NCBI GenBank assembly: GCA_000999595.1
Contig: LCJH01000001.1
Coordinates: 1 to 55,815, forward strand
Origin: Microgenomates group bacterium GW2011_GWA2_44_7
GTDB lineage: Bacteria; Patescibacteriota; Microgenomatia; GWA2-44-7
DNA length: 55,815 bases
Reading direction: 5' to 3'
Position numbers and translations under genes: made by a program
Part shown: piece after piece, positions 18,815-55,374 of the stretch
Layout of the letters: each line of letters begins with the position of its first letter
Position numbering within the stretch: the first letter of the stretch is position 1
Notes under the pieces: model-generated
Databases searched by the model: none
What the model saw: only the letters and a program-made list of their open reading frames with translations
Told to the model about the DNA's origin: nothing

Positions 18815-20515
18815 CTAGATTGAGGCAAACTCAAAAGCTACCTCTCCACTTGGAAACACAACTCTATCAATAATTTGCGCATTTGAGGGAATTTCCTTCG
18901 GTGTCCCAATAACCAAAGTCCCAGGTATTTGACTTACCTCCTCCCAAATAATCGGCGCAAAATCAAATTTACCAAAACTCTTCACTGTTGAAAATCCATA
19001 TTTATCTCGTAGAGATAGCACCACTTCCTTTTGAAAAACAGCCGGAGGATATTTTAAGAAAAAAAGCATCTCAATATACGGCTGATCATAAGTATCCGTC
19101 ATGATAACTCTGTTGTAGAAGGGTAGTAGTGGCCCCACTTTTCTCGCTACCTGCTCGAATCCATATTCCCAGGCATCCGGATAAACTTTAGGATAATGAA
19201 TGTAATACTGATTAAGATAATAGCTTACACTCCAACCATAACTCAAAGCGATGCCACCAGCAATCAAGCCATAAAGAAGCGGAAAATTTAATCTGACAGC
19301 CGTTAGCTTCTTCACCAATAAGGTAAACCCGGCTGCCGTAACTAACACTAATGGGATAACCATATTTTGAGCTCTCAACGCATGGGGGGTTTGGAAAGTT
19401 AAAGCCGCCGCCAGAGGCGATACTGCCAACCAATAAAAGACCAACGCAGTTCCTCTACCTCCCTTTTTCACTAATACATATACGCCTAGAAGCAAAATCG
19501 GAATCTCTATCAAATACATCTGGCCCATCTCCGGCACCCTGTTCCTTGGAATAACGTCACCGGAAATAAAGAGGAAATTTCCACTGAAGTGTTCAAGATA
19601 GTTCCTAGCAAATAAACCTGCATAAGCCATCACTTTATTATGTAAAATTTTCACCACCAGACTATCGGCGTTACCATGCTGACCGCGTAACTCATTGACC
19701 CGCCAAATAGGACCCGTGTCAGCCGTTAGACCTACCCCGGAAAACCTGGAAAGTCCACCAGGGCTAAAGACAACCCCAATAAGCGGCAATAGAAGCAAAA
19801 ACCCGAGAGCCGTACTTAGCCAGAACTCTCTCCGAGGCGGCCAAACTTGCTTAAAGAAAATCAGCACCAACCCTAATCCCAATACCGGCGCAATCAAGCG
19901 AGTACTCTGATAGATATACATCGAAAAGACAAAAAAGATGACCGACGATAAAAGAAACATCCGTCGATTCAGCCCCTTTAAAAAAAAGACAACCCCGGCC
20001 AACAGCATCGTTGTCCCAGCATTCGTTTCCCATCCTCCTCTTGAAAAATGGATATGCCAGGGCGAGATCGCCAAAAGTAGGGCTGTCAAAAGTTGGTATC
20101 GCTTATCTGACTTACCGAAAGACAAAACCGCTACTTCACCTGCCAGAACATAAATCAGCCAGACCGAAAGAACTCCCAGTAAAGCAGAAGGAAGCCTAAC
20201 CGCCAAGATATTAAGTCCTATTATCTTAACAAGCGGCACTACCAAATAAAAATATCCGCCTGGTTTGTAATCTCCAAATGACTTAAAAACGATCGGCCAG
20301 GCATTTCCGTGCTCGTCCCTCCCTGTCCGTAAAAGCGAATAGGCATTGTAGCCAATCGCTGCCTCGTCCGCATTAAGACCTGATGGAAATTCATCTAATG
20401 AATAAAGTCGGAGAACGGCAGAAAGAACAAGAATTACGATCAAGATAATCTTCTTTAGAGAAAAATTCATTTTAATCTTATGGCCTCCAATTTTCTGAGA
20501 CCGCGTACCGACCAA
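18815..20515 (-). CDS. GT-C glycosyltransferase, GT39/PMT-ArnT-like (family A, member 1)
   Basis: 566 aa and polytopic. The first loop reads LDEFPSGLNADEAAIGYNAYSLLRTGRDEHGNAWPIVFKSFGDYKPGGYFY, followed by ISPWHIHFSRGGWE. The C-terminus has a soluble domain ending VVFPSGEVAFEFASI. The ORF-track start is TTG; the likely true start is the Met of MNFSLKK (about 20470). Confidence 0.75.
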   Translation of the reverse strand: MVGTRSQKIGGHKIKMNFSLKKIILIVILVLSAVLRLYSLDEFPSGLNADEAAIGYNAYSLLRTGRDEHGNAWPIVFKSFGDYKPGGYFYLVVPLVKIIGLNILAVRLPSALLGVLSVWLIYVLAGEVAVLSFGKSDKRYQLLTALLLAISPWHIHFSRGGWETNAGTTMLLAGVVFFLKGLNRRMFLLSSVIFFVFSMYIYQSTRLIAPVLGLGLVLIFFKQVWPPRREFWLSTALGFLLLLPLIGVVFSPGGLSRFSGVGLTADTGPIWRVNELRGQHGNADSLVVKILHNKVMAYAGLFARNYLEHFSGNFLFISGDVIPRNRVPEMGQMYLIEIPILLLGVYVLVKKGGRGTALVFYWLAVSPLAAALTFQTPHALRAQNMVIPLVLVTAAGFTLLVKKLTAVRLNFPLLYGLIAGGIALSYGWSVSYYLNQYYIHYPKVYPDAWEYGFEQVARKVGPLLPFYNRVIMTDTYDQPYIEMLFFLKYPPAVFQKEVVLSLRDKYGFSTVKSFGKFDFAPIIWEEVSQIPGTLVIGTPKEIPSNAQIIDRVVFPSGEVAFEFASI

Positions 20516-21830
20516 ACAACATCTCTGTTCCGTTATGCCGCGGATTATCAGAATAGCCTACAAAGAACATCGAGGGATTGTGAGGCCCGATCGGTTTTTC
20601 ATAGTAAGTCCTTATTATCCCAAATCCATTACCTTCTCCAACTGGAAAATCGTAAGTAATATTAGGCCGATTATATGGCTTTGCCTTTTCCAAAATATAA
20701 AGAACCGCATCCCGCTGGTGATTGTAACCGAGTGTATCATCATAGGTTACAAGCAAATTAAGAGTCCTGATCATACTAAATATTGCCACTATAAAGAGGG
20801 CCACAATCCCAAACGCGTTCTTGCCTATGGTTAAAGTTAGAATCAAAAAAAGAACAAGTACCGCCGTTGCCAGATAATACTCTGGCCAATGAGAACCTCC
20901 ATAAAAAGAAAAAGCCACTATAGAAAGTGGCACCACAAGCAGCAACATTAAAATTTTTAGATTTCGACTGTTTAAATAAAAAAGGGCAACCAAAAGAAAA
21001 AGAGAAACAAAAAGCTCATAAGGTTCAGCTAAAGGCAGGAAAGAACGAAATTCCCTGGAGAACTGAATCACTGCAAAAACAAATCGGTCGATATAACCGC
21101 TTGAAAGAGAAACACTCTGTCCTGCAAAGTTAAATACCGTAGCAATATTGATGAAATTATGACGAATATCAAAGATAATAAGCGGCGCGAACGGAACCAG
21201 AAAAGCACCTATCACGCTCAATAAACCAACGATCCTTTTCGATTTTTTAATACGAAAGTACTTTATAATGAAAATAGCAAGAACCGGTAAAAAGAAAATA
21301 AACTGAACATGAAAATTAATCCCCATCCCGACAAGAAAGGCCAAAAACAATAACGACTTTAAGCGATAACCCCTGGAAATGACCACCTCAACAATCGCTA
21401 TTACAGCCATCGGATAATACATTACGTTCCAACTCACCCTGTGTAGCTCCGAAACCCAGATTACACCTGCCAAAAATCCCGCGAGCGAAGAGATATGTTT
21501 CCTAATAAAGTAAAAGAGCCACGCGACAATCGCCACATTCACCATTCCCGCAACATACGCCTGGAAGATTGGGTCTGCCCTAAAGGCAAGATAAAAGGGA
21601 ACCAGGAAATAATAATGCCATGGCCCTAGGTGAAAACCGGCCTCAGAAACGACCCGGGGACCGATAAGTACCGGCCTTCTAGTTAGGACCATCTGCTGAA
21701 CTTCCTGATAGTCTCTCTCTTGATCATAGCCAATATGATAGAGGTTCTCCAGTTTATAAAAACTAAAAAACAGACTAATAAGTAAAAGTAATAGTAATAA
21801 GCACACCGAAGAAAAGCGTGTGTTAAACAT
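20478..21830 (-). CDS. GT-C-like polytopic membrane protein, ArnT-like (family C, member 1)
   Basis: 450 aa. The first loop YKLENLYHIGYDQERDYQEVQQMVLTRRPVLIGPRVVSEAGFHLGPWHYY is alignable by eye with 50419..51909 and 51912..53381. Confidence 0.6.
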   Translation of the reverse strand: MFNTRFSSVCLLLLLLLISLFFSFYKLENLYHIGYDQERDYQEVQQMVLTRRPVLIGPRVVSEAGFHLGPWHYYFLVPFYLAFRADPIFQAYVAGMVNVAIVAWLFYFIRKHISSLAGFLAGVIWVSELHRVSWNVMYYPMAVIAIVEVVISRGYRLKSLLFLAFLVGMGINFHVQFIFFLPVLAIFIIKYFRIKKSKRIVGLLSVIGAFLVPFAPLIIFDIRHNFINIATVFNFAGQSVSLSSGYIDRFVFAVIQFSREFRSFLPLAEPYELFVSLFLLVALFYLNSRNLKILMLLLVVPLSIVAFSFYGGSHWPEYYLATAVLVLFLILTLTIGKNAFGIVALFIVAIFSMIRTLNLLVTYDDTLGYNHQRDAVLYILEKAKPYNRPNITYDFPVGEGNGFGIIRTYYEKPIGPHNPSMFFVGYSDNPRHNGTEMLFGRYAVSENWRP

Positions 21831-23514
21831 TTTTGTACGGTCCCATCGATAAGAGATGCCTTCGAAGCATCTTTACTGAAATGACGATAATCAAACCGAG
21901 TGAAATTAATGATAACGAGTTACCAATCCTCTCAATTGGAGTGCTGTTCAGTCGCACCTCGACCAAATGTTTCCCAGGTTGAACCGGAAATCCCAATAAC
22001 CCCCCCGTTCCTATCGGAAATGTCTCCACCGGCTGCCCGTCTACTAACACCTGCCACAATGGAAAATAAAACCTCATCGCCTGCAGTAATTGGGGCGACT
22101 TAGTAGTAACCTCAAAAGTAGTAAGATCTCCAACAGCCCGAAAGTTGACCATTTGATAACCCAAACACGCATCAGCGTTGACACCGCAAGTCTCAGGAAC
22201 TTTATCTACCCAAATAGGAAGTGATTCTCCAGCAACATCGGTAGTCCCATAATAAAGCCCGGTATCATGTACATAATAATCGTCAGAATAGCGAACAGGT
22301 TCAAAAGTTCTCAAATAATTTCTATTTGAATAGAAAGCGACCGCCAAAATAAAAGTAACCAAAACCAATTTTGCCACCTTGCTCCCTACTAAAGAAACAA
22401 CCCACGAAGCCAAAAAGGCGCAGGAGAGAACCGTAACCGCCAGAAACCTCCAAGGGAATTGGACGTGACTAAAGAGAGAAATAAACGCCCAAACGGGTTC
22501 TGATTGGGGCTGCATAAGAAAGACAGTAACCCAAAAAATCCCCAAGAAAAGAAAGGCAGAACGATCTTTTCTTCTCAACTGCTCCCGTAATAATCGATAA
22601 AAAAGACACACAGCACTCATTACCACCACCAGCCACTGAACCCCACCTACCTGAAACGACATTCCATCATTTGGGCCGGGGACCGAATACCAATAGCCCC
22701 AAGACGAATATACAAGCTGTCGAAATGTAGGCCAGTGCTGACGAAAATCAAACACCTCGTGGCGCCCTATATGAATGAGGGGTAACTCTAAAACGGCCGG
22801 GAGAAGAAAAAAGGCCGAAAGACCAATCCCTAATAAAAAACTCGTCCCGAACGGGAGTAGCTTTTCTTTCAAACTCTTTGTTTCCACCAATTTCAACCCA
22901 ATATATAAAGCAAGGGGGATAGCAAATATAACCACACTAATGTTATGGGACGTGATGAGTCCAAACGTTGACAAAGCTATCACCACGAACCCCAAGAAAC
23001 TTTTCTTAACAAGATACCGATCAATACTAGCCAGAAGCAAGGGAACAAAGAAAAAAGCAAGCGTTGCCCCATACTGACCAGTAACATAAAGAGTCCCCAA
23101 CCTATAAGGCGCGTAAAGATAAACTATCGCCCCGATCATCGATGAGACACGTCCAAAATAACCTCTTAACCACCAATACATCGAAAAACCGGATCCCAGA
23201 GTCGCCAGATAAATTACCAACTTCAGGCTTCCTCCGTACGTAAATCTCAAGAAATGAAACAACGATCCCAAATAATAAAAGAGCGGGTAAAAATAGTTAA
23301 AAACAGGAGAGCCAAAACCGTTAGCCATATCCACCGCTATCCGTACAGGAAACTGACCCCTTGAGAGCTCATCATAGAAATGCATTAGACGAACCATATG
23401 GTGAGTCCCATCATGAGTCTTAAAAAATCCAGCTGGCAAAAGGGCTTGCGTAATCGGAACTATGGAAATAAATATCAAGAAAAGCGGGATTAGGTTACGT
23501 ATCTTCTTAACCAT
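21823..23514 (-). CDS. GT-C-like polytopic membrane protein, YfhO-like (family B, member 1)
   Basis: 563 aa. N-terminal loop THDGTHHMVRLMHFYDELSRGQFPVRIAVDMANGFGSPVFNYFYPLFYYL. Mid motif HVQFPWRFL. C-terminal module FYFPLWQVLVDGQPV...PGKHLVEVRL followed by a final helix. Confidence 0.6.
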   Translation of the reverse strand: MVKKIRNLIPLFLIFISIVPITQALLPAGFFKTHDGTHHMVRLMHFYDELSRGQFPVRIAVDMANGFGSPVFNYFYPLFYYLGSLFHFLRFTYGGSLKLVIYLATLGSGFSMYWWLRGYFGRVSSMIGAIVYLYAPYRLGTLYVTGQYGATLAFFFVPLLLASIDRYLVKKSFLGFVVIALSTFGLITSHNISVVIFAIPLALYIGLKLVETKSLKEKLLPFGTSFLLGIGLSAFFLLPAVLELPLIHIGRHEVFDFRQHWPTFRQLVYSSWGYWYSVPGPNDGMSFQVGGVQWLVVVMSAVCLFYRLLREQLRRKDRSAFLFLGIFWVTVFLMQPQSEPVWAFISLFSHVQFPWRFLAVTVLSCAFLASWVVSLVGSKVAKLVLVTFILAVAFYSNRNYLRTFEPVRYSDDYYVHDTGLYYGTTDVAGESLPIWVDKVPETCGVNADACLGYQMVNFRAVGDLTTFEVTTKSPQLLQAMRFYFPLWQVLVDGQPVETFPIGTGGLLGFPVQPGKHLVEVRLNSTPIERIGNSLSLISLGLIIVISVKMLRRHLLSMGPYKNV

Positions 23515-25179
23515 TTAATATGTCTTGACAATTCGGAATACGACCGAGCCATCAGGTCGGCGAATATTGTTAACAGCGACTGCTTGCTTACGATCGATAT
23601 CTTTGAGAGGAAGCTCCTCTTCTGTCCCCACGAAAAACGTCCCTTTTATTCCTCTGTCGCTCGGCCAATAAAGATTTCGGAAGTTGTAGTTCTCAAATTT
23701 GTGGACTTCTCCCACATCGCCATTTGGACTTGCTATCAATTTTGCTTGAGATTGGTAGCTAACTGGATCGACTCTATTGTAGAAAAGTACATAGATATAC
23801 GGTTGGCCCATCTTCTGAGTAAAGAAAACCGGACGGTTCTCAAGATTTTCTTGATTCAACAATTCAACCGCTTCCTTGTAACCGTAAAGCCGTTGATCTG
23901 AGAAAGTGACGGGAGCGTGCACGAAATAACTATCAAGATAATAACTTATTCCCCACAAATAAGTGACCGTAATGGCAGCAATTAGAGAGACGCTAAGTAA
24001 TAAAGATCTGCGTCTTATGAATAAGAGCAACGAATTTGTCCCCAGACTTGCTATTAATATTAATGGAATAACAAAGTTTATTGATCGCACTGCCGTGACG
24101 ACATCACGCGAAAGGGCGGCCGGCAAAGGAGAAATAACCAACCAATAAAGTAGAAAACCTTTGGCAGGAATCTCCGGCCGACGGATCAAAAAAGCAAAAC
24201 CAATAATTAGTAAAAGAAGGTCCGGCCAATAAAACTGTCCGGAATAAGGACTACCTAAACGGGCATTTGTCCAATCCCCTTCAAAAAAAAGAAACCGCCC
24301 GGAAAAATAACTAAAATAGCCCTCCAAGAAACGCCTCGTGCTATTTAGCCATTCACCGTGGAAGAATAAAAACTGTAATGAGTTTATAGTGGTTCCCTCT
24401 CTGGCGGCAATCGAGACGGCTTCTCCTACCGATCGCTGATAGGCAAAGACGTTATACACCATTAGCCTCCCACTGGTGCCCTGCGCGAATAATAGGATTA
24501 AAGCCAGAAATAAAGCGAAGATCGTTGAGCCGGTTAAAAAAGAAGGATTATTTCGCCACTTAATTTGTTTTCGAAAACATACTAGTAAGCCGACGACAAC
24601 TAAGGGTGTAATAATTTTGGCACTTTGATAAGTAAAAAATGTCAGACCGAAGGCTAGACCCGCAATTATCAAATAACGGCTTGATTTCCTTCCTTTTAAG
24701 AATGTCAGTATTCCCAATAGCGTGAGCATTAAGTTCATATTTGCTTCCCAAGCTCCTCGGGAGAAATGTATAAGCCAAGGATTGATGGCGGTTATTAACG
24801 CCGCAAACACCCCAATCGTTTTATTTTTTTGATCAAATAACTCACTTACCAAAAGATAGACCAAGCCAATAATAGCCACTCCTGAAACAGCCGAGGGTAG
24901 CTTAACGCTAAACTCATTTAAACCAAATAAGCCCACCGGGAGAACGGCGGCGTAGGCATAAAGGGCGGGTTTATAGTCTCCGAAGGATTTAAGTATCAAA
25001 GGCATAAAAATGCCATATTCATCCTTTCCTGTTTTCAAAATCGAATATGCATTATAGCCAAGGGCGGCTTCATCCCAAAGTAAAGGCCGACCATCAACTC
25101 CTAAACGCCAAACACGCAACGTCGCACCAAGCCCCATGATAACAATTAGGATTACTAGCGCCATATATTTAGTATTCAT
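23515..25179 (-). CDS. GT-C glycosyltransferase, GT39/PMT-ArnT-like (family A, member 2)
   Basis: 554 aa with LLWDEAALGYNAYSILKTGKDEYGIFMPLILKSFGDYKPALYAY and INPWLIHFSRGAWE. C-terminus ends IRRPDGSVVFRIVKTY. Confidence 0.75.
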   Translation of the reverse strand: MNTKYMALVILIVIMGLGATLRVWRLGVDGRPLLWDEAALGYNAYSILKTGKDEYGIFMPLILKSFGDYKPALYAYAAVLPVGLFGLNEFSVKLPSAVSGVAIIGLVYLLVSELFDQKNKTIGVFAALITAINPWLIHFSRGAWEANMNLMLTLLGILTFLKGRKSSRYLIIAGLAFGLTFFTYQSAKIITPLVVVGLLVCFRKQIKWRNNPSFLTGSTIFALFLALILLFAQGTSGRLMVYNVFAYQRSVGEAVSIAAREGTTINSLQFLFFHGEWLNSTRRFLEGYFSYFSGRFLFFEGDWTNARLGSPYSGQFYWPDLLLLIIGFAFLIRRPEIPAKGFLLYWLVISPLPAALSRDVVTAVRSINFVIPLILIASLGTNSLLLFIRRRSLLLSVSLIAAITVTYLWGISYYLDSYFVHAPVTFSDQRLYGYKEAVELLNQENLENRPVFFTQKMGQPYIYVLFYNRVDPVSYQSQAKLIASPNGDVGEVHKFENYNFRNLYWPSDRGIKGTFFVGTEEELPLKDIDRKQAVAVNNIRRPDGSVVFRIVKTY

Positions 25180-25195
25180 TTTTTATTATTTGCTA

Positions 25196-26995
25196 TTAAA
25201 TTCTTGATCGAACTTTATTAAATGTATAGCTTAGATTTTCAAAGAAACTCCCGGGATTAAAGTAAGTAGTATAGGAAAGACTCCCGGGGATATTTTTGCC
25301 ATTGATATAAAGACCTTCCCCACTTCTGCTATCGTATGGAACAGCGATATTTGTTCCTTCAGTGACGGGTGGTGCCCCAGGAGAGGTGATAATTAACGAA
25401 TAACGATGCGTGGCCGACTGTCTAATCTGCTTGAAAACTAATTTCAGATTGAAGTCATCCCCAATTGCTCCTCCGTTTATCTTAAAGGTTTGCGTCATAC
25501 CGCCATCTTTATCTGTCAGTGTAAAATAGACATCAGCTTTGCTTTTCAGTCCAATGTTTTTTATCATCACTTGGAGTCCCTTGAAATTATTATGGGTGAC
25601 TATGAAGTCCTGTTGAACAGTCGTCTCTCGACTTAAGACAACTGATTCTCTTTGGGAAAGGGTCTCAAAATCTATATACATCCCTTTAACGGTCAACCAA
25701 CTATGCAACAGAATTACCAAACCTCCGATACTGATAGCCAAAAGCGAGATAAGCTTTAAAATTCCTATAGGCGGGGTGGCCGGGAATTGATAGTTTGGCT
25801 TGATGGTTTTTATTATTTCAATTACAAACCAAAGCATGCAGGCCAAAAATACCGCATGAAAGAAGCCTTGGAGCTGGCTGCCGACCCCAAATAAGTCAAC
25901 CGCTTGACGGACACTGGGAAGCGAGATTAGGGCTTCATTAGTTGGACTAAATAAAGCAAAGGTCATATAAGTGTCGCTGATCAGAAAAACCGTGGCAAAG
26001 TAGGCAACCATTGATAACAAAGCGACCCTCCAATTTACCCAGCCCTTGATCGTGAGCAGCAATAGAAACGGCATTAACCATAGCATCCACTGGGGGTGAA
26101 AATTGTTTAAACCAAAATAAACGCCAAAAATGGCCAGAGGTATAACTGCCAACGGAGTTTTTTTTAAAAGGCCAAGGGTCGTTAAAATTAGCATTAATCC
26201 ATAAAATACACCATAGATAGGTAAATGTTCATTGTTGCCGATATCAAAGCCTGTTTTTGTTAGCCCGGTCGTTAAATTTGACAGCAGTATAGAACTTAGG
26301 GCTTCTCTTGAGAGCAAAATCGGGATAAAACTTAAGACCAAAGTTAAAATGGCAATAGTTAAGTCTCTCGTCTTTAGCAGTAGCCGACGATTGTCAAGTA
26401 ACCACCAAAAAGGAATAAGTAATAATGGAAAGAGTTTGAAACCAGCACCCGCGCCGAGCATAATATAAGACAAAGTCTTTTTTCTTCCAAAACATATTAC
26501 CGAGGCCAGTGTCAGGCTGGTCGGAACGACATCAAAATGAGAGGTACCATAAATTGCGTAAAGCGAGAACGGGTTGAAAAGCCAAATAAGGGCAGTTTGT
26601 TTCTTCTGATCATCTGAAACTGACCTTAATAATAACCAGGCGATAACTAGATCCGTGATGATGATTGGCATTTTCATCAGAAGTAAATCTCGATAGATCC
26701 CTCGATAATTCCCTACCCGAAGATCAAGACTCTCAATCCAGCCGTTAAAGTTGGGAGTAAATAAAAAACTCCCGATCTTTTGATAGGTAGCGAACAGCAG
26801 GTAAACAGGCGGTGGGTAATGCAAGGGAGTATTTTCTTTTACGCCAACCTCGTAGCCTTTAACCCAACCATATTTAGAAATTAGCGTTGCTTCGTGATAA
26901 ATACCCTTAAGATCAGGGTGATATAAAAAAGACGATAGCAGGATTCGCAAAATAACGGCCAGACCGACAAATTTTAACCACCAATGGTCTTTCAC
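25196..26995 (-). CDS. GT-C-like membrane protein, DUF2029/GT87-Gpi18-like (family D, member 1) with a C-terminal extracytoplasmic domain
   Basis: 599 aa. N-terminus FLYHPDLKGIYHEA...LHYPPPVYLLFA, then about 12 helices. After the last helix comes a non-membrane, beta-rich tail of about 150 aa (...FKGLQVMIKNIGLKSKADVYFTLTDKDGG...YSLIITSPG...). Confidence 0.55.
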   Translation of the reverse strand: MKDHWWLKFVGLAVILRILLSSFLYHPDLKGIYHEATLISKYGWVKGYEVGVKENTPLHYPPPVYLLFATYQKIGSFLFTPNFNGWIESLDLRVGNYRGIYRDLLLMKMPIIITDLVIAWLLLRSVSDDQKKQTALIWLFNPFSLYAIYGTSHFDVVPTSLTLASVICFGRKKTLSYIMLGAGAGFKLFPLLLIPFWWLLDNRRLLLKTRDLTIAILTLVLSFIPILLSREALSSILLSNLTTGLTKTGFDIGNNEHLPIYGVFYGLMLILTTLGLLKKTPLAVIPLAIFGVYFGLNNFHPQWMLWLMPFLLLLTIKGWVNWRVALLSMVAYFATVFLISDTYMTFALFSPTNEALISLPSVRQAVDLFGVGSQLQGFFHAVFLACMLWFVIEIIKTIKPNYQFPATPPIGILKLISLLAISIGGLVILLHSWLTVKGMYIDFETLSQRESVVLSRETTVQQDFIVTHNNFKGLQVMIKNIGLKSKADVYFTLTDKDGGMTQTFKINGGAIGDDFNLKLVFKQIRQSATHRYSLIITSPGAPPVTEGTNIAVPYDSRSGEGLYINGKNIPGSLSYTTYFNPGSFFENLSYTFNKVRSRI

Positions 26996-27075
26996 GGTCT
27001 AATTATCGCACTTTATGGGACTTAAGTGGATCCCTCACCCAAAGCCATAAGACTCACTCCCCAGGCAGAAATTCC

Positions 27076-42329: not shown

Positions 42330-42356
42330 TACTTTCTAATGTTATTCTTCGGTAAT

Positions 42357-46517: not shown

Positions 46518-46572
46518 GACTTTGATATTATTGTATCTCCGAATGGCTAATCTCCGGGAATTCGGCGAAGGA

Positions 46573-48258: not shown

Positions 48259-49652
48259 TTATATGGGCAATTGCGGTTTCACTCGATAGAAATATAATAT
48301 TTCGGTCGATCCATCAACCCGTGATGGCTTGGCGAAGGAAGAAACGAGTTCTAATCCATGTTTTGGTGGATCCATTATTTCAAAACGGCTCTTGTTGGCT
48401 ATCAGATAGACCTCGTTATCCCCGAGGGCATTATTGAGCGAAGTCGGAATGTCTTTGATCGGATAAGCCAGGCCAACGACCCGAATATTAGAACGCCCCT
48501 CGAGATACATTTGTAAACCGTCCGGCATTGTCCCAAAAAAACCTTCTGTGCCAACTAAAATATTAATATTGTCGGGTCTGCCCTTTAAGTAAGCGGCGAT
48601 CTCCCGCAGGCCGTACCCGGCAGTCCACTCTTCCATATAGTTGGGGAGACTCTGGATATGCCATATGCCCCAAAGAGCAGCATCGCCGGAACTGTAAACA
48701 AAATGTACCTGGCAGTAAAAACTTTACCAAAAATTGACTCGATTAATATTGGTCCTATCGTCCAAACGAATAGCAACAGGGCTTTTGATGGCATACGGCG
48801 CAGCATACGATAGGCCCCGATAACTCCAAGAATAACAATCGGAAGTGTCATGAGTATGATTAGCCACCAACCAACCTGCTCGAGGTTTGAAATCAGAGGA
48901 GTTAATGGGTGACTGATTATTTCATTTAGTGAATAAATGTAATCAAGGTTTCGAGAGCCTATTAGATGAAAATTCGGCCCTAAACGCAAAATATTATATA
49001 TGCCAAAGCCAACAATTAAGGCGACCAAGAAGCCTGACAACGCCTTTAGCAGAAACTTCCAGTCAGCTAAACTTTTTTTTGGGGCAACCAATAGCACAGT
49101 AGGCAAAAGAAAGAAGAAAAATTCGCCCGGTGTTTTGGTCAACCAAGCACCACCCAGCGCCCCACCGATTAAGAGTGATAAGTCAAACCTTGGATTGCGT
49201 ACAAACAGTAGACCCAAGACCAGAGCGCCCATTCCCCAGAAAGTAAGCAGACTATCAACTAAGGCTTTCCGATCAAAAAATACTAAAAAGGGAGAGGAGG
49301 CGATTAAGAAAAATGTAATTATTGCTACTTGTTTTGATCGGAACAAGAGCCAACTTACTAATCCCATTTCGATCATTATTCCCAGACCGGAAAGTACGGA
49401 GATAAAGCGACCGGCAAACAGGGGATCTGAGAATAATTTGAGAGAAGGAATTACCAACCACATAAAAAGCGGTTGTTTGCCATCTGAAAGAGGTAAAAAC
49501 CTTAAGGTCTCTTCTGCCTTCATAACTTGTGCCCAGCGAACATAAATAGCTTCGTCGACAAAAACCGGCAGAGTTGTACCTAAACTATAAAGCCTTAAGA
49601 TAATTCCAATGAAGAAAATGACGGCGATAAGAATGACGTCCTTATGATTCAT
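48259..49652 (-). pseudogene. Frameshifted ArnT/GT83-like GT-C gene (family E); two overlapping ORFs in different frames
   Basis: ORF 48585..49652 is the membrane domain (LPVFVDEAIYVRWAQVMKAEE...DGKQPLFMW, about 10 helices). ORF 48259..48636 is the C-terminal soluble domain (NYMEEWTAGYGLREIAAYLKGRPDNINILVG...). The C-terminal frame is open upstream to about 48722. The last credible helix (ILFTVPAMLLFGAYGI) places the shift at about 48640-48665. Confidence 0.6.
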
Positions 49653-49653
49653 C

Positions 49654-50400
49654 TTAATCGTAAATCCCTAGAATTTCGTTCTTTCTTACTCGAATAATTT
49701 CCCGCAGCATCTCCACTGATTCTTGAACAAATTTTCGTTGTTTGGAGGTACTTGAATCTATATTTCGCCACTCAACGGTGATCTCTTTGATCTTAAAGTT
49801 CATTCTTTGAGCAACAAATAACAGCTCGACGTCCCAAGCGCCTACTCGCCACCCTGATCCTCGTTGCCGTCGAAAAACTTCTAGCTTAGAAAAAACCTTT
49901 TTAACGACATCCGTTCTAAAACACTTAAAGCCACACTGGGTATCGTGAATGCTCGAAAGTACCAACGCTCTTCTAATCAGTAGAAAAATCGGAGAAGCAA
50001 TTTTTCTAACAAACGGGTAATTCTCACGCTTAAAACCCCTAGATCCGATAACAATTTCGTACCCATGCTCGATCCCCTCTTTGAATTTTTCAAATTCATC
50101 AATTGGAGTTGATTGATCCATATCGGTGAATAATACATATTTCCCCTTGGCTTTATTGATGCCTGCCCTAAGAGCGAATGCTTTTCCTCCTTTTGGGTTT
50201 CTAAGGTGAACGAAATGTTTTTTGCCCTTGATATATTTTTCTACTAACTCAAAACTTCCGTCAGATGAACCGTCATCAGAGATAACAATTTCCCAATCAA
50301 AGTTCTGGCGCGAAAGATAGCTTGTGACCTCCGCTAACACACCTCTTTTTAGATTTTCTAATTCGTTATAGCAGGGTATTATTACTGATAAAAATATCAT
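49654..50400 (-). CDS. GT2 polyprenyl-phosphate hexosyltransferase (ALG5/GtrB-like)
   Basis: 248 aa with LSVIIPCYNELENL, IVISDDGSSDGS, FTDMDQSTP, IVIGSR and HDTQCGFKCFR. The stop lies 1 nt from the downstream GT-C gene's start. Confidence 0.75.
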   Translation of the reverse strand: MIFLSVIIPCYNELENLKRGVLAEVTSYLSRQNFDWEIVISDDGSSDGSFELVEKYIKGKKHFVHLRNPKGGKAFALRAGINKAKGKYVLFTDMDQSTPIDEFEKFKEGIEHGYEIVIGSRGFKRENYPFVRKIASPIFLLIRRALVLSSIHDTQCGFKCFRTDVVKKVFSKLEVFRRQRGSGWRVGAWDVELLFVAQRMNFKIKEITVEWRNIDSSTSKQRKFVQESVEMLREIIRVRKNEILGIYD

Positions 50401-50418
50401 TTGTTCACAGTTATAAGT

Positions 50419-51909
50419 CTATTTTATACGAGTTCGTTGTTCTACAGTAATTCCTCCAAAGGTGGCTACTTGGTCAACCCTCCCTATTTTCTTTTGGCGG
50501 GTAAGCCACGCGGCAAGTCTTTCCGGATGAGGTACATCGACTTCGTAGATAGTATATAGCTTAGGAGTCAATGCGGTTGAGGGCAAAAGCAAATGGGAAG
50601 GCTTAGTTCCTAACCATTTGAATAAATAGTCATATGCGTGTGGAATGACCGGAGGCACATAGACATCGGTATTATATGGTTCACCCTCCTGTTTGGCTCG
50701 CTGTAAAACCCAGTTAACCGCTTGTTTTTCGTTTCCAAGAACGACATTAACCGGACCATCGGTCCCAGCTACCAGGTAATTTCTAATAAGAGGAAGATTT
50801 AACCAAATGAAAAGAAGCATAAAGACGATAAAGAGCGCCTTGCCGAATAAATATTTCGTCCACCAAGCGGTTAGAACTGAGACAAGGAGGACAAAAACCA
50901 AATAAATACCTGTTAAATAGTAATCCCAGACATACCCCGAATTACCTTGATAAAAAAGAAGGCCTATCAAGGGCGTTAACAGCCATAATAATAGTAGTTT
51001 TATTCCGTCTGATTTTAACCGTGATCTGAAAAGCACTAATGATCCGGCGACACTGATTAGCATGAAATTCGCAACAGGAACATCGCTTGCAACAATTTTT
51101 AACCATAAAGCTTGCCAATAATAATTTAGCCTCGACCCGAGAACAGCAAAGAGATCGTGTCGGAAGCTTTGTTCGCTTATTAGAAATCGATAAAAAGACT
51201 TGATCATTAAAGAATCGTGTCGAAGATCAAATAAGGCTTGTGGAAGAAGGGTCAGAATAAACAAGAATAGGGAAAAAATCAAGAGATAGCCTTTGGGAGC
51301 TTTTTTGCGTTGCCATGTCAAGAAAATCAAGATTGCCGGAAGGAAAAAGAAAGCGCTGGCGGCTTCAAACTGTAGGCTGACACCCAAGCCAAGCGAGACA
51401 ACCAACCAATACTTGAGGTTTCCTTTTATTATCTGCCATAATCCCCAAATCATTATCGAGCTTGACAACATAAGCTGTGTCGGATTGGATAACCAACGAC
51501 TTGCGACTACTAACCAATAAGAAAAACCTCCCAAGGCAATAAATATATAAGCGGTTCTCCTACCAAAAATTTCATCAGCTAATTTCGCGGTCATAATAAG
51601 AGCCAATACGGTGGTGGCAGAGAGATAAATTGCCGGAAAGACGGGGTCCCCACTACCGAGCCAATACCACGGAAGCAGCGTAAAATAATAAAGTGGACCT
51701 AAAAATATTCCTTCTATACCAGTGGTCGGACCTATTAAAAACAGTTTATGGTTAACAATAAGATCTCGTATTGTTAAGGCATCCCTTCCCTGATCAAAAT
51801 AAAAACCGAGAAGTTCATCTAACCGATAAACTCTAATAAGGAAAGCGACTGATAAAAGAACTCCCATCAATCCCCAGTTTCTGCCCCATCGCAATATCTT
51901 AGGAAACAT
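50419..51909 (-). CDS. GT-C-like polytopic membrane protein, ArnT-like (family C, member 2)
   Basis: 496 aa. The first loop is YRLDELLGFYFDQGRDALTIRDLIVNHKLFLIGPTTGIEGIFLGPLYYF. C-terminal soluble domain of about 100 aa. Confidence 0.65.
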   Translation of the reverse strand: MFPKILRWGRNWGLMGVLLSVAFLIRVYRLDELLGFYFDQGRDALTIRDLIVNHKLFLIGPTTGIEGIFLGPLYYFTLLPWYWLGSGDPVFPAIYLSATTVLALIMTAKLADEIFGRRTAYIFIALGGFSYWLVVASRWLSNPTQLMLSSSIMIWGLWQIIKGNLKYWLVVSLGLGVSLQFEAASAFFFLPAILIFLTWQRKKAPKGYLLIFSLFLFILTLLPQALFDLRHDSLMIKSFYRFLISEQSFRHDLFAVLGSRLNYYWQALWLKIVASDVPVANFMLISVAGSLVLFRSRLKSDGIKLLLLWLLTPLIGLLFYQGNSGYVWDYYLTGIYLVFVLLVSVLTAWWTKYLFGKALFIVFMLLFIWLNLPLIRNYLVAGTDGPVNVVLGNEKQAVNWVLQRAKQEGEPYNTDVYVPPVIPHAYDYLFKWLGTKPSHLLLPSTALTPKLYTIYEVDVPHPERLAAWLTRQKKIGRVDQVATFGGITVEQRTRIK

Positions 51910-51911
51910 GC

Positions 51912-53381
51912 TTAAGGTTTGTTATGTATCAGTTTATAAAGAGTTACCCCCCAGGGAAAAGACCGAGAACTGTCAATCTTTGCCCAGCCAAAATTCGCTA
52001 TTTCGGCTTTAGGATGACCTACAGGATTGCACTGGGATACCGGGAGTTCACAAACGACAAATAACTGTTCGGTTAAGTCAGGTGGCATCTCTTTTAGAGG
52101 TGCACCCCATTTGCGCAAAATAAAGCGGTAGCTTTCATCATAATTTTGATTCGCAATCATGCCCAAATTAAAATCTTTCCCTCCCGATGACTGTACTATT
52201 TCACGACTAATAACCTGGGCATGCTGATAAAGATCATAAGGTGTTGCCAAAAGAGGACTGGCTGAAAGGTTTAAATAAAGCAAGCCCATAAACGCGACTA
52301 TTACCGCTACCCTAGTTACTTTGGCTGTTTCCCAAAGGTAATCTATAAGAGCCCCCGCGATTAAGAAAATTGCCGGGAAAATAAAGCCATAGTAATGATC
52401 AAAAAGAGATTGTTTATAAAGGCCTAACCCGATAATACCAAAGCTAACCCAGGTAACTAATAACCTTAAGCTGGTAACTTTATACCTTCTGATAAAAAGG
52501 ACAATCGTTCCAAAAAGAATCACGCTTGAGGTGATAGTGCCGAGATGTTTCGAACCGGCAGTTAGAAGGGACGTTGTCATTCTTTCTAGAATAGGTAGCA
52601 GATTGGGAACAGCCTTGTAAACCTTAAAGTTGACGGTCGTTTGACGTTGGGAGAAGAAAGTAAGCATTGCACGCGAATTTAAAAATTGATGCCTGATATC
52701 AAATAAAACTATCGGCGACATCAGCAAAATAAATACTATAAACGAGATCGCTGTTGAATGAAGCAGGGCTTGCCTGTCTACTTTTTCCTTTTTGACAGCA
52801 AGAAGCCACCAAACAAGAATCGTCGGTAATAATAAAAGTCCGAGGTAGTGCGCTTGGATTGCAAAGGCAAGTGAGATAAAGCAGATTAATAACCACCTAA
52901 ATTTGCCACCATTAAACACTCGCCAAATTGCATATATAGCCAAAAGGGCAAAAAAGGGCATGACATTTGGATTCCATGAAGATCGTGAATAGATAATTAC
53001 CGTTGGAGAAAGTGCATATAATATGGCGGCGGTAGAGCCGGCCATGGGTGAAAACCATTCTCTCCCAATTAGATATATCATCAAAACAGTGGCGACACCT
53101 ATTAGGGCTACAAAAACTGACGGACCGACAGGTGAGAGGCCGGCGAGAACGAAAGAGGGTAATATTAGGTAGTAGTAAAGGGGGCCGTTGTACATATGCC
53201 CGACAGAGGTCCCCGGCCCGATTAATGTTAATTTCTTCTCTACTACCAACTTCCAAAGCACAAGTGCATCTCTGCCTTCATCCCCCTGAAACTGCATATA
53301 CCGATCGATTTGATAAAGCCTGAGAAATGCTGCAAGAAGAACAAGGACGATCAGCGCAGACAACTTACCACCAATAAACAT
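51912..53381 (-). CDS. GT-C-like polytopic membrane protein, ArnT-like (family C, member 3)
   Basis: 489 aa. The first loop is YQIDRYMQFQGDEGRDALVLWKLVVEKKLTLIGPGTSVGHMYNGPLYYY. Tandem with its paralog, separated by 2 nt. Confidence 0.65.
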   Translation of the reverse strand: MFIGGKLSALIVLVLLAAFLRLYQIDRYMQFQGDEGRDALVLWKLVVEKKLTLIGPGTSVGHMYNGPLYYYLILPSFVLAGLSPVGPSVFVALIGVATVLMIYLIGREWFSPMAGSTAAILYALSPTVIIYSRSSWNPNVMPFFALLAIYAIWRVFNGGKFRWLLICFISLAFAIQAHYLGLLLLPTILVWWLLAVKKEKVDRQALLHSTAISFIVFILLMSPIVLFDIRHQFLNSRAMLTFFSQRQTTVNFKVYKAVPNLLPILERMTTSLLTAGSKHLGTITSSVILFGTIVLFIRRYKVTSLRLLVTWVSFGIIGLGLYKQSLFDHYYGFIFPAIFLIAGALIDYLWETAKVTRVAVIVAFMGLLYLNLSASPLLATPYDLYQHAQVISREIVQSSGGKDFNLGMIANQNYDESYRFILRKWGAPLKEMPPDLTEQLFVVCELPVSQCNPVGHPKAEIANFGWAKIDSSRSFPWGVTLYKLIHNKP

Positions 53382-53384
53382 AGA

Positions 53385-54122
53385 TTAATTACTACGAAGC
53401 GAGAGCCATAAATCTACCGTCCCTTTAACTGCTCGCAGTATTATTTTTGGATGAGCACCTCGTTCTCTACGATTTTTATCACCCTGATCTGGAAAGTGGG
53501 ATACCGGGACTTCTGAAATTTTGAGTCCCGCTCTTTTGGCTTTAACTAATAGTTCTGTACTTATCATCGCCGTGTTGGTTTTTAGTCTCGGTAATTTAGC
53601 CAATGAGCTCCTTTTAATCATCTTAAAGGCACAGTCGATATCTTTAAACCAAATACCAAAAAAGATGAGATCCCAAAATCTCAGCGCTTGGGCAAGCAAA
53701 ACCCTAGGCAAGCCTTCGGCTCTATTAGCTCGATATCCGATGACAAGATCATTATTGATAATTAGTTGTATAAATTTAACCACTTCACCAAAGTCAAACT
53801 GTCCGTCACCATCGGTAAAAATAATTAGATCTTTCTTAGAACTGTAAAAGCCGGCGATCAATGCTCCGCCATAGCCTCGGTTGGGAGAATGGTGAATCAC
53901 CTTAATTCGCTTATTCTTAGCGGCTAAGGCATCGGCTATCAGACCAGTTTTGTCAACTGAGCCGTCATCAACGATTATGACTTCATAATCTGTGTCTAAA
54001 CTTTCTAATTCTTTAATTGCCAAAGAGATAGTCCTTTTTATGTTTGATTCTTCATTATAAGCGGGGAAAAAAACTGAGATACTATTTTTCGTGGCCATTT
54101 TGAAATAAGTATAACATGCCAA
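53385..54122 (-). CDS. GT2 polyprenyl-phosphate glycosyltransferase (ArnC/GtrB-like)
   Basis: 245 aa with ISVFFPAYNEESNI, VIIVDDGSVDKTGLIA, NRGYGGALIAGF, FTDGDGQFD, VIGYR and DIDCAFKMI. The likely true start is the Met of MATKNS (about 54098). Confidence 0.75.
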   Translation of the reverse strand: MACYTYFKMATKNSISVFFPAYNEESNIKRTISLAIKELESLDTDYEVIIVDDGSVDKTGLIADALAAKNKRIKVIHHSPNRGYGGALIAGFYSSKKDLIIFTDGDGQFDFGEVVKFIQLIINNDLVIGYRANRAEGLPRVLLAQALRFWDLIFFGIWFKDIDCAFKMIKRSSLAKLPRLKTNTAMISTELLVKAKRAGLKISEVPVSHFPDQGDKNRRERGAHPKIILRAVKGTVDLWLSLRSN

Positions 54123-54243
54123 CTTCTTGTTTTTAACTTACAAAGGTCTTAATACGGCTTTTATTCCCTGTTCCAAGTAATAATTTGGAAGTCGTTAACG
54201 TTTACCTAGGATCGCTTATTTGACCAAAGAAATCCTGACTTGG

Positions 54244-55374
54244 TTATTTTTTTCCAGTCTGCTTCCAAACGATCCGTGTGTACATCAGCCAATTGTATGG
54301 GAGCACCAAAAAAACAATAATGAAAGGCAGATAGATTTGACGGTACTGTGTCCCAAAAACCGAAGCGAGGGCAGTTCCAGTGATGGTAGTAATTATGAGT
54401 GCCCCGGCAGAAGTCAAATTAAATTGCATAAACTTCCTTACAATGTCTAATATCTTAGTGAAACTTTCTTCTTTAAAAGTCCAAAGGTTATTCCAAGTAA
54501 AATTCGAGATAATCCCCGCTTCTGTTGCTATCGACCAAACCAGAACCTCGACGATATTCATCCGACCCAGTATCCAAATGCCCAGAGAAGTGACAATATA
54601 GCCTAGAAAACCGACAATACCGAATTTTATAAATTTCTTTACTTTGGGCTCTTGGGCTCTAGTCGTTATAATAAATAAAAGCGTTCGGACAATGTACTCC
54701 AGCTTTGGCATTTTCGATTTCCCTGCCGTACGATCGACAAAATGAAAGGGTACCTCCGCTACCTTTGCTTTGTAAAACAGCGCCCAGTAAAGAGATGAGA
54801 GTTGAAAAGTATAATTGCGATATTCCGTCACGTGCGGTTTAAATTTTTCATAGACCCATCGACGAAGTAACCGATATCCTCCTGTCCAATCTTTAATATC
54901 GAAACGGGTAAATAAAACCATGGCAACAATATTGCCAATCACCGAGAGAAATTTTCGGTGAATACCCCAACTTTGAGGAATTCCTCCCCCGGGGATATAC
55001 CTTGAACCAAGGACCAAATCATAGCCCTCGTCTAATTTTCTTATCATTTGAGGAATCTTATCCGGATCATGAGACAAATCCGCATCCATTTCAAAAACCG
55101 CATCGGCGCCTTTTTTCTCAAATGCATAAGCCATGGCAACCAAATAGGCACCGCCTAAGCCAACTTTGTGCTTATTAACAACCAAGTCTAAATTGGGGAC
55201 AAATTGCATTAAATCCCGAACGATATCAGCTGTGCCGTCTGGAGACGTGTCGTCAACGACAATAATTCCTAAATCATGCCCCTTGACCTTGCTAAATGCC
55301 CGTCTTATTCCTTCAATAGATTTAACAATATTTTCCGCTTCATTGTATGTGGGGACAATTACAAGAATCTTCAT
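54244..55374 (-). CDS. Polyprenol-monophosphate mannose/hexose synthase (DPM1/Ppm1-like GT2) fused to a C-terminal GtrA-like membrane domain
   Basis: 376 aa. The catalytic part has ILVIVPTYNEAENI, IIVVDDTSPDGTADIV, GLGGAYLVAM, MDADLSHDPDKIP and LVLGSRYIPGGG. The C-terminal ~130 aa form four helices with KFIKFGIVGFLGY and ISNFTWNNLWTFKE (GtrA family pattern). Confidence 0.8.
   Translation of the reverse strand: MKILVIVPTYNEAENIVKSIEGIRRAFSKVKGHDLGIIVVDDTSPDGTADIVRDLMQFVPNLDLVVNKHKVGLGGAYLVAMAYAFEKKGADAVFEMDADLSHDPDKIPQMIRKLDEGYDLVLGSRYIPGGGIPQSWGIHRKFLSVIGNIVAMVLFTRFDIKDWTGGYRLLRRWVYEKFKPHVTEYRNYTFQLSSLYWALFYKAKVAEVPFHFVDRTAGKSKMPKLEYIVRTLLFIITTRAQEPKVKKFIKFGIVGFLGYIVTSLGIWILGRMNIVEVLVWSIATEAGIISNFTWNNLWTFKEESFTKILDIVRKFMQFNLTSAGALIITTITGTALASVFGTQYRQIYLPFIIVFLVLPYNWLMYTRIVWKQTGKK

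Follow-up and report, generated by a model that had tools for sequence, protein, structure and literature searches.

Introduction

A three-part logic of synthase, flippase and glycosyltransferase of the GT-C fold class is universal, being common to the Gtr, ArnC/ArnT, CsbB/YfhO, GacIJKL and Lactococcus Wps systems, as well as to archaeal and eukaryotic N-glycosylation. All three component types, the flippase being represented by a GtrA-like domain and a Wzx protein, are encoded together in the locus described here, which occupies a 55,815-bp stretch of DNA (the window, i.e., the whole stretch analyzed) of a Microgenomates bacterium belonging to the Candidate Phyla Radiation (CPR). The closest mechanistic analogue is the multi-component transmembrane glycosylation of Gram-positive bacteria, especially of the Lactococcus polysaccharide pellicle (PSP; Wps) and of Streptococcus GacIJKL (PMC10821137, PMC8035078). 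In the PSP scheme, a GT2 enzyme resembling dolichyl-phosphate mannose synthase (DPMS) primes polyprenyl monophosphate, cytoplasmic glycosyltransferases extend the product, a Wzx-type flippase exports it, GT-C enzymes polymerize or attach it, and extra synthase/GT-C pairs add side-chain sugars; the module contains neither an initiating phosphoglycosyl transferase (PGT) nor Wzy, and the components of the window suggest a likewise organized scheme. In comparison with PSP and Gac, the locus encodes 17-18 instead of 1-3 GT-C enzymes and 3-5 synthases, and it lacks a GacJ/WpsB-like activator gene, a rhamnan/ABC-transporter arm and an LCP ligase. Moreover, the GT-C protein adjoining Wzx, here designated X, is from a family for which no Pfam model exists, and the host, a CPR bacterium, has a very small genome.

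The Ppm1/Pmt/PimE-MptA-C system of the Corynebacterineae (PMC3485146, PMC12041525) resembles the locus in that a Ppm1/DPMS-type synthase feeds several extracytoplasmic GT-C enzymes, and in the presence of proteins of the GT87 neighbourhood. However, the locus has a Wzx-centred core and no genes for a phosphatidylinositol mannoside (PIM) anchor, its PMT-like proteins lack the PMT_4TMC domain and resemble ArnT, its GT87-like proteins resemble eukaryotic ALG6 or PIG-M at least as much as PimE, and its genes are clustered whereas the actinobacterial genes are scattered. The eukaryotic ALG and archaeal Agl pathways with STT3/AglB would have in common with the locus a lipid-linked oligosaccharide that is built inside and flipped, GT-C_B enzymes that extend it with dolichyl phosphate (Dol-P)-hexose from DPMS, and a GT-C_A enzyme with a C-terminal globular domain adjoining the flippase; the differences are that X lacks the signature motifs of an oligosaccharyltransferase (OST) and that Asn-linked glycans are not known from CPR bacteria. 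ArnC/ArnT and Rhizobium RgtA-D, which modify lipid A and core, belong to the PMT_2 family. Two GT-C families of the window (A and C, see below) share the PMT_2/PMT domain with them, ArnT is the sole sequence relative with a solved structure, and synthase and GT-C genes are likewise adjacent. An outer membrane and lipopolysaccharide are presumably absent from CPR bacteria (PMC6744442), and the acceptor must therefore differ from that of ArnT and RgtA-D.

The CPR represents a large, almost uncultivated part of bacterial diversity, of which the envelope chemistry is essentially unknown. A Gram-positive-like envelope is assumed for its members (PMC6744442), in line with a multi-component transmembrane glycosylation scheme. 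A PIM-like pathway with GT87 and a Dol-P-Man synthase has already been raised for Saccharibacteria (PMC6031116), and apart from this proposal no specific glycosylation, lipoglycan or OST system of CPR/Patescibacteria was found described in the literature. A first-pass annotation of the window had compared its enzymes to the lipomannan and protein O-mannosylation machinery of actinobacteria.

This paper describes the gene content, the conserved core and the enzyme families of the locus by means of sequence profiles, structure models and comparison with related genomes. The data suggest, with a probability that we estimate at roughly 0.55, that the locus builds and decorates a complex extracytoplasmic cell-surface glycan from lipid-linked sugars. 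The system is a greatly enlarged version of known machinery in a lineage of uncharacterized envelope chemistry, and it is only loosely like the mycobacterial lipomannan system.

Results

A dense cluster of glycosylation genes

The window has a GC content of ~0.41, is ~97% coding and contains 44 genes, 42 of which are located on the minus strand in an operon-like packing with frequent stop/start codon overlaps; no tRNA was found and an Rfam scan gave no match. Genes were sorted on basis of Pfam matches combined with an all-against-all comparison of the window proteins, and they are named here by the lower coordinate of the open reading frame (ORF). All coordinates given in the first-pass annotation proved to be real ORF boundaries on the minus strand. 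With the exception of a single plus-strand gene pair, every ORF of at least 150 aa was of the glycosylation type according to Pfam, and the census comprised 17 GT2, 3 GT4, 3 S-adenosylmethionine (SAM) methyltransferases, 1 Wzx-type MOP flippase, and 17-18 large polytopic membrane proteins. No Pfam family for Wzy, Wzz, an initiating PGT, an ABC exporter or nucleoside diphosphate-sugar synthesis was matched by ORFs of this size. With 17 ORFs that have a GT-C match, the window is far denser than chance would allow; 80 comparison loci elsewhere that surround DPMS homologues contained 0-3 per ~20 kb.

Several contigs assembled independently from groundwater metagenomes of the Rifle aquifer (PRJNA268031 and others) were 100% identical to the window and belong to a Microgenomates bacterium, in agreement with the earlier view of a non-actinobacterial host harboring an uncharacterized system. 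Three stretches of unique coding sequence that these contigs contain are missing from the window, namely 118 bp at 48640/48641, 112 bp at 33274/33275, and 98 bp at 8421/8422, and positions 40149-40183 represent a scaffold-gap junction. The three genes that appear split in the window are assembly artefacts and not pseudogenes, because they are intact in other assemblies or relatives: 48259+48585 as a 503-aa gene product in contigs L003/L004, 32155+33267 as one of 577 aa in contigs L001/L002, and 39681+40181 as one of 340-348 aa in relatives.

The cluster continues for at least 7 kb past position 1 of the window with four more methyltransferase genes, a GT2, a GT4 and a gene for a 1,066-aa polytopic protein. 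Its other end is 54244, beyond which housekeeping genes of the trmD, tsaE, ftsEX and prfA type are located. The window probably represents the greater part of a supercluster for surface-glycan biosynthesis that spans at least 63 kb.

A conserved core around a Wzx-type flippase and protein X

The centre of the locus is formed by the following genes, to which one synthase and three GT-C genes listed further below are added.

45009..46517, minus strand: Wzx-type MOP flippase (Polysacc_synt_3, 2.9e-44)
43322..45028, minus strand: protein X, GT-C-fold membrane protein of 568 aa, candidate enzyme for transfer or polymerization of the lipid-linked glycan once flipped (AlphaFold2 model and Foldseek)
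40654..43286, minus strand: three cytoplasmic GT2 (42357, 41409, 40654) of the conserved core (Pfam GT2)
39681..40672, minus strand: GT4, one gene seen as two ORFs (Glycos_transf_1 and Glyco_transf_4 halves)

The core order is family C, synthase (49654-like), family C, family B, Wzx, X, GT2, GT2, GT2, GT4. This whole core was found to be colinear in two distant Woesebacteria, one of which is represented by the complete 1.27-Mb genome CP065002.1, with genes that are 36-51% identical; for example, the syntenic Woesebacteria orthologues of 50419, 49654, and 46573 display 43%, 40%, and 36% identity, respectively. The three core GT2 have orthologues with 39-49% identity in the same order in contigs L095, L096 and L098. 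In L098, which derives from a closer relative or sister taxon, the segment from Wzx onward is kept, together with 38426 and the two GT2 that follow it. The first-pass annotation had set the locus apart from classic Wzx/Wzy polysaccharide loci, and this stands with respect to Wzy, which is absent from the window, but not with respect to Wzx, which together with four cytoplasmic glycosyltransferases forms the conserved centre. The Wzx protein also matched NCBIfam models for MOP flippases and for Wzx of O-glycosylation, below their cut-offs. On the opposite strand just upstream of Wzx, L098 carries a HTH_3/Gp49 (HigBA-like toxin-antitoxin) pair and a DUF2905 gene (2309-3194).

The genes of Wzx and X overlap by 20 bp. 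X had no Pfam, NCBIfam or PDB sequence match, and it belongs to a large family: more than 1,330 close homologues with 40-65% identity were found in Woesebacteria and other Microgenomates, and the family amounts to 1,712 cluster representatives (at 50% identity) in a library of 1.84 billion proteins. An AlphaFold2 model of X (predicted local distance difference test score, pLDDT, 88.9) displayed a GT-C_A fold with a C-terminal globular domain. The top 20 of its Foldseek matches consisted of AglB, STT3, PglB and the C-mannosyltransferase DPY19 (E-values of 7.5e-9 to 4e-5), and the C-terminal domain matched that of AglB (3vu0) with a probability of 1.0 and a TMt of 0.52-0.56. AftA fitted the model equally well by TM-score (0.53/0.50) and better by root-mean-square deviation (rmsd). 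Neither WW nor WWD was present in X or in a 31-member consensus, the DK/MI motif was also absent, and there was no STT3 Pfam match. X was not classified as an OST because of the absence of WWDXG, and a canonical OST was rejected on this ground and for lack of a PDB sequence match. A Wzy polymerase was rejected in view of the GT-C fold, and relatedness to family D was rejected at an hhalign probability of 0.1%.

About one third of the best matches to the X family (relatives P0354-P0500) are proteins of 950-1,160 aa that carry an extra N-terminal secreted domain (450-590 aa; weak DUF3863 match), which may, as a conjecture, point to a polysaccharide substrate. In one protein of 1,639 aa (P0387), the orthologous Wzx (N-terminal 491 aa; 41% identity over 486 aa) is fused to X via an extra secreted domain.

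Predicted polyprenyl-phosphate sugar synthases

Five GT2 genes encode predicted or candidate synthases that would provide the GT-C enzymes with lipid-linked sugars.

54244..55374, minus strand: predicted DPMS/Ppm1-type polyprenyl-phosphate hexose synthase, GT2 with GtrA-like domain of 4 transmembrane (TM) segments; first gene of the cluster (Pfam)
53385..54122, minus strand: soluble GT2 of the DPMS/ArnC/GtrB subfamily, candidate lipid-P-sugar synthase (DPMS profile, 99 bits)
49654..50400, minus strand: soluble GT2 of the DPMS subfamily, candidate lipid-P-sugar synthase of the conserved core (DPMS profile, 104 bits)
15990, within 14941..18789, minus strand: DPMS-subfamily GT2 with degenerate DxD (DPMS profile, 105 bits; DAGME)
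10030, within 384..12621, minus strand: divergent DPMS-subfamily GT2 (DPMS profile, 88 bits; DGNGS)

With 80 genomic homologues of 54244 as input, a hidden Markov model of the DPMS family was built. Over the whole catalytic domain (model positions ~2-242), 54244 scored 280 bits, 15990 105 bits, 49654 104 bits, 53385 99 bits, and 10030 88 bits, whereas the other 12 GT2 genes of the window scored 13-40 bits with their N-terminal (nucleotide-binding) half only. By sequence, these five genes form one DPMS/Ppm1-type subfamily, and they are exactly the genes that the first-pass annotation had called Ppm1/DPM1-like. The metal-binding DxD(xQ) motif characterizes the polyprenyl-P glycosyltransferase subfamily (PMC10821137); it is intact in 54244 (DADLS; DADLSH), 53385 (DGDGQ) and 49654 (DMDQS), and its second Asp is absent from 15990 (DAGME) and 10030 (DGNGS), the role of which as synthases is doubtful.

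The product of 54244 gave Pfam matches to GT2 (5e-28) and GtrA_DPMS_TM (3e-13), and aligned over residues 1-332 with the solved archaeal (Pyrococcus) Dol-P-Man synthase 5MLZ (E 3.8e-40). Among its genomic homologues, those of Candidatus Shapirobacteria (45-48% identity) came nearest, together with those of Woesebacteria (41%), and in the catalytic domain it shares 40-43% identity with short homologues from actinobacteria. The best NCBIfam match was PgfS, below its cut-off, and the best PDB matches of 53385 were ArnC and DPMS (~1e-13). None of the five genes reached an NCBIfam equivalog cut-off. Only 54244 has a TM domain of its own (fused GtrA/DPMS), and the other four lack a clear TM segment.

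DPMS homologues with 35-42% identity were also encountered in contigs of metagenome-assembled genomes that are labelled Gammaproteobacteria/Pseudomonadales (L017, L019-L021, L026, L037). Family B/C GT-C genes in the Microgenomates arrangement are present in L017, L019, L026, and L037 as well, and the taxon labels may be wrong.

GT-C families A, B and C

Besides X and the family D proteins described below, the large membrane proteins could be assigned to three further families and a singleton.

51912..53381, minus strand: family C GT-C (PMT/PMT_2, ~490 aa; PMT_2 3e-13, PMT 5.6e-7)
50419..51909, minus strand: family C GT-C of the conserved core (28% identity to 51912)
48259..49652, minus strand: family C GT-C, one gene seen as two ORFs (48259-48636, 48585-49652; intact 503 aa elsewhere)
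46573..48258, minus strand: family B GT-C (PTPS_related/YfhO-like) of the conserved core (PTPS_related 1.7e-10)
33773..35425, minus strand: family A GT-C (PMT_2/ArnT-like, ~550 aa; PMT_2 4e-14; invariant DE)
32155..33776, minus strand: family A GT-C, one gene seen as two ORFs (32155-33021, 33267-33776; intact 577 aa elsewhere)
28721..32174, minus strand: two family B GT-C (30375, 28721; PTPS_related 2.5e-14 and 2.2e-8; 29% mutual identity)
27076..28773, minus strand: family A GT-C (30% identity to 18815; PMT 6e-4, below cut-off)
23515..25179, minus strand: family A GT-C (PMT_2 4.5e-12)
18815..23514, minus strand: three GT-C, 21823 (family B), 20478 (family C) and 18815 (family A) (YfhO 2.6e-7, PMT_2 9e-7; paralogy)
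1144, within 384..12621, minus strand: GT-C-like singleton of 745 aa with 14 TM segments (weak PMT_2 match)

Family A consists of 18815, 23515, 27076, 33773 and 32155+33267, family B of 21823, 28721, 30375 and 46573, and family C of 20478, 50419, 51912 and 48259+48585. The families are remotely related, with hhalign probabilities of 98.7% for A and C and of 96.4% for C and B. An invariant acidic residue is located just past the first TM segment in each GT-C family, as DE in A, D33 in C, D44 in B, HPD in D and HD in X.

Family A, described in the first-pass annotation as GT39 PMT-like, could be upheld as such at the clan level through PMT_2, but it finds ArnT instead of Pmt among solved proteins. 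Its Pfam matches are confined to PMT_2 (PF13231), or to PMT (PF02366) below the cut-off (27076: 19.8 vs 22.7 bits), and the family C members 51912 and 48585 pass the PMT threshold. PF02366 also covers ArnT/GT83. The C-terminal domain of Pmt, PMT_4TMC (PF16192), was matched by none of the window proteins and by none of the 120 best family A homologues listed. Profiles of families A and C matched a single solved structure, ArnT 5EZM (E 0.0018 and 2.5e-5, respectively), and did not match Pmt1/2/4 at E-values up to 10. D35-E36 (DE) in the first extracytoplasmic loop is invariant in 5/5 family A members; the motif is common to ArnT-like enzymes and is hence not discriminating. The at least 3,730 homologues of 23515, mostly from Patescibacteria, are named either 'GT39 family' or 'ArnT-like', and judged by these sequence comparisons the GT39 label is a database convention that is valid at clan level only. 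Searches of PDB sequences with single members of families A, B and C returned nothing useful, and neither did the family B profile. The proteins 25196, 23515, 30375, X and 1144 and the 1,066-aa protein of the flank have C-terminal or extra domains in which a Pfam scan detected nothing significant.

Ten GT-C genes follow each other in a row at 18815-35425 without a synthase among them. They are paralogues at 24-35% identity, some of which have widespread orthologues of their own, and the run is a lineage-specific addition. Recent tandem duplication was rejected as the origin of the GT-C array, given this degree of divergence and the presence of separate orthologues of several members in other genomes. 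The system had been called massively amplified, and the GT-C density is indeed extraordinary, but it is better described as the result of old, divergent paralogues having accreted around a core that other Microgenomates also possess.

Family D, in the neighbourhood of GT87

38426..39700, minus strand: family D GT-C (GT87/DUF2029-like, GT-C_B class; homologues match PF09594; AlphaFold2 model)
35409..36689, minus strand: family D GT-C, divergent (hhalign to 38426 profile)
25196..26995, minus strand: family D GT-C with an extra C-terminal region of 200 aa (hhalign to 38426 profile; C-terminus without Pfam match)

The assignment of these three proteins to DUF2029/GT87 could be retained as a neighbourhood. 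GT87 (PF09594, formerly DUF2029) is matched by 35 of the 37 aligned homologues of 38426 (E up to 0.01; best 9.6e-10), and NCBI names its relatives 'DUF2029 domain-containing', but 38426 itself remains below the cut-off (19.3 vs 25 bits), and 25196 and 35409 do not match. Both align with the 38426 profile by hhalign, 25196 over residues 2-394 (100%, E 7.8e-39) and 35409 at 97.5% (E 5e-12). The 38426 profile retrieved the glycosylphosphatidylinositol (GPI) mannosyltransferase GPI-MT-I (E 2.6e-10) and not PimE. In a Foldseek search with the AlphaFold2 model of 38426 (pLDDT 92), PIG-U, ALG6 (TMq 0.65), GPI-MT-I, and ALG3 ranked above PimE (9dm5), which appeared only in 13th position (E 0.27, TM 0.44/0.48, probability 0.96). 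Profile and model comparisons thus characterize family D as a predicted Dol-P/polyprenyl-P-hexose-using GT-C_B enzyme of the GT87 neighbourhood, and not as a demonstrable PimE/Mpt orthologue. The structure models of 38426 and X match only GT-C enzymes that depend on lipid-P- or lipid-PP-sugars.

Other genes in and beside the cluster

36695..38429, minus strand: two cytoplasmic GT2 (37539, 36695; Pfam GT2; syntenic with family D in L098)
14941..18789, minus strand: GT2 (17968), GT4 (16808), DPMS-subfamily GT2 (15990) and GT2 (14941) (Pfam)
12677..14938, plus strand: FNR-like flavin reductase and B12-binding radical SAM enzyme, the only plus-strand genes (Pfam)
384..12621, minus strand: distal cluster with 3 SAM methyltransferases, six GT2, GT4 (4383), 10030 and 1144 (Pfam)

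The SAM methyltransferase genes are located at 384-1100, 6516-7313, and 10885-11595 in the window and, beyond it, at positions 10731-13684 of the flanking contig L009. The total of at least seven in or next to the cluster suggests heavily O-methylated sugars. The radical SAM enzyme of the plus-strand pair is HpnJ/BchE-like (E 7e-28, below the cut-off), and the pair may be involved in radical C-methylation or rearrangement of a sugar or lipid.

The GT4 genes gave only generic, sub-threshold NCBIfam matches with regard to a PimA/PimB identity. No phosphatidylinositol (PI) synthase, PimA/PimB'-type GT4 or PatA acyltransferase was found in the window or in the fetched flanks, and no Emb/Aft-type gene could be identified by sequence in the locus.

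The sole long ORF-free stretch of the cluster is found at 8286-8978 (~790 bp in L009, 2023-2815); it has no Rfam match and is possibly an internal promoter region or a decayed gene. The 1,066-aa protein of the flank (L009 14826-18026) has ~16 predicted TM segments, an extracytoplasmic middle domain of ~400 aa and no Pfam/NCBIfam match, and is maybe a further giant GT-C-like enzyme. Upstream of the opposite window end, contig L003 encodes a 305-aa protein (5620-6537) and a CAP-domain protein (7408-8355), each with a Ser/Thr/Pro-rich linker and a C-terminal membrane anchor, which by their sequence are plausible O-glycosylation substrates.

Discussion

The pathway proposed here builds on the observed enzyme folds and families, paralogy, conserved synteny and the Wzx-X fusion; beyond fold or family assignment and synteny, the sugar identity, the order of the steps, the donor of X and the acceptor are inferred. 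On the cytoplasmic face, the DPMS-type GT2 enzymes (54244, 53385 and 49654, and doubtfully 15990 and 10030) would load monosaccharides onto polyprenyl monophosphate. Such a lipid-P-sugar, or the product of an initiating enzyme encoded elsewhere, would be extended by the GT2-GT2-GT2-GT4 block, and further GT2 and GT4 enzymes could add to the glycan and the methyltransferases could modify it. Wzx would then move the lipid-linked oligosaccharide outward, and the GtrA-like domain of 54244 may move lipid-P-monosaccharides. Outside the membrane, X would transfer or polymerize the flipped glycan, and the 16 other GT-C enzymes (families A-D and 1144) would add residues from lipid-P-sugars to the growing glycan or to the final acceptor. 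A complex, branched and partly methylated glycan that is associated with the cell wall or membrane of this monoderm-like cell is the most likely product. Candidates for the acceptor are a wall-associated polysaccharide, a lipoglycan, and surface proteins, and some of the GT-C enzymes may instead glycosylate Ser/Thr/Pro-rich surface proteins. The window contains no PGT, Wzy, Wzz or ABC exporter, which fits a polyprenyl-monophosphate-primed pathway like that of the Lactococcus PSP (PMC10821137). The donor/GT-C logic of the first-pass annotation, i.e., cytoplasmic GT2 enzymes that load polyprenyl phosphate and many GT-C enzymes that use the products outside the membrane, is thereby retained as a prediction from the encoded enzymes.

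Several points weigh against this pathway. X lacks WWDXG, and TM-scores of ~0.5 do not separate OST, AftA and ArnT. The Wzx-X fusion is represented by a single protein, which may result from erroneous gene calling. The soluble synthases lack a TM segment, and no gene for a GacJ/WpsB-like partner is located near them. A PGT encoded elsewhere in the genome would turn the core into an ordinary undecaprenyl diphosphate (Und-PP) pathway. The sugar specificities, the acceptor and the donor of X are not readable from sequence, and a search for RNA-seq data returned DNA metagenome runs only.

Alternative explanations were also considered. Extensive protein O-glycosylation, in which the PMT_2/PMT-type GT-C enzymes modify Ser/Thr-rich secreted or membrane-anchored proteins directly from lipid-P-sugars, like actinobacterial Ppm1/Pmt or Streptococcus Pgf, would agree with the PMT_2/PMT domains and the DE or D motif in loop 1 of families A and C, with PgfS as the best, sub-threshold NCBIfam match of 54244, and with the two Ser/Thr/Pro-rich membrane-anchored proteins encoded a few kb upstream. 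We nevertheless regard it as rather unlikely: PMT_4TMC is absent from all members, the only solved relative is the lipid-modifying enzyme ArnT, the Ser/Thr-rich neighbours are located outside the cluster among housekeeping genes, and 15 cytoplasmic glycosyltransferases, Wzx, and the methyltransferases would be left unexplained. Alternatively, the locus could be a mosaic of independent small systems side by side, i.e., Gtr/CsbB-YfhO-type pairs that decorate different polymers without a single product. Synthase and GT-C genes are indeed neighbours as in ArnC/ArnT or CsbB/YfhO (53385 with 51912; 49654 with 48585), peripheral gene content varies between relatives, and the paralogues are old (24-35% identity). 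However, the tight co-directional packing with overlapping genes over more than 40 kb, the core order that is kept across orders of Microgenomates, and the ten GT-C genes in a row without a synthase among them make such a mosaic unlikely.

Two further explanations concern the nature of the product. The specifically actinobacterial reading holds that GT-C mannosyltransferases, GT87-like ones and others, use polyprenyl-P-mannose to elongate a PIM-like glycolipid anchor outside the membrane, yielding a lipoglycan that resembles lipomannan/lipoarabinomannan (LM/LAM). Although 54244 is DPMS/Ppm1-like with 40-43% identity to actinobacterial homologues in the catalytic domain, family D is in the GT87 neighbourhood with a Foldseek match to PimE (probability 0.96), and a saccharibacterium has been proposed to possess a PIM-like pathway that includes GT87 (PMC6031116), this reading turned out to be weak. 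The lipid-anchor functions it predicts, PI synthase, PimA/PimB-type GT4 and PatA-like acyltransferase, were not found in the window or fetched flanks, and neither was an Emb/Aft-type gene in the locus. Families A and C find ArnT and not Pmt, family D is closer to ALG6, GPI-MT-I and PIG-U than to PimE, and the core of Wzx and cytoplasmic glycosyltransferases has no counterpart in LM/LAM synthesis. A lipomannan-like product is therefore considered improbable. Still less probable is an N-glycosylation-like system in which an oligosaccharide flipped by Wzx and extended by the ALG-like family D is transferred en bloc to protein by X as a divergent OST. The Foldseek matches of X and of its C-terminal domain to AglB and its relatives, those of family D to ALG6 and ALG3, and the order Wzx, X, glycosyltransferases, which resembles pgl and agl loci, agree with it; the absence from X of WWDXG, the DK/MI motif and an STT3 match, and the fit of AftA, which is equal by TM-score and better by rmsd, argue against it. 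Moreover, the N-terminal secreted domain of many X homologues perhaps points to a polysaccharide substrate, albeit by conjecture.

The proposed cell-surface glycan pathway can be extended to a broader and more tentative idea, namely that Microgenomates share an envelope-glycan pathway centred on X, an unrecognized GT-C family that is coupled genetically, and in one case physically, to Wzx, in which X would transfer or polymerize a polyprenyl-linked oligosaccharide that up to 16 GT-C enzymes elaborate. We consider this possible, with the odds clearly against it.

The locus would take ~5% of the coding capacity of a ~1 Mb genome, almost all of it for lipid-carrier-dependent glycosyltransferases, and such an investment implies that the surface glycan is central to the biology of the organism, e.g., in host attachment, protection or phage defence. 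The correction of the labels 'GT39' and 'DUF2029' is relevant in this respect, as they would otherwise suggest a mycobacterial-type envelope. Moreover, the analysis provides handles in the form of three intact candidate lipid-P-sugar synthases, a ten-gene core in common with Woesebacteria, and an unannotated GT-C family, X, that is linked to Wzx. Finally, the X-centred pathway, if true, would be a bacterial counterpart of the ALG/OST logic, and in these episymbionts host attachment as well as recognition by phages could depend mainly on it.

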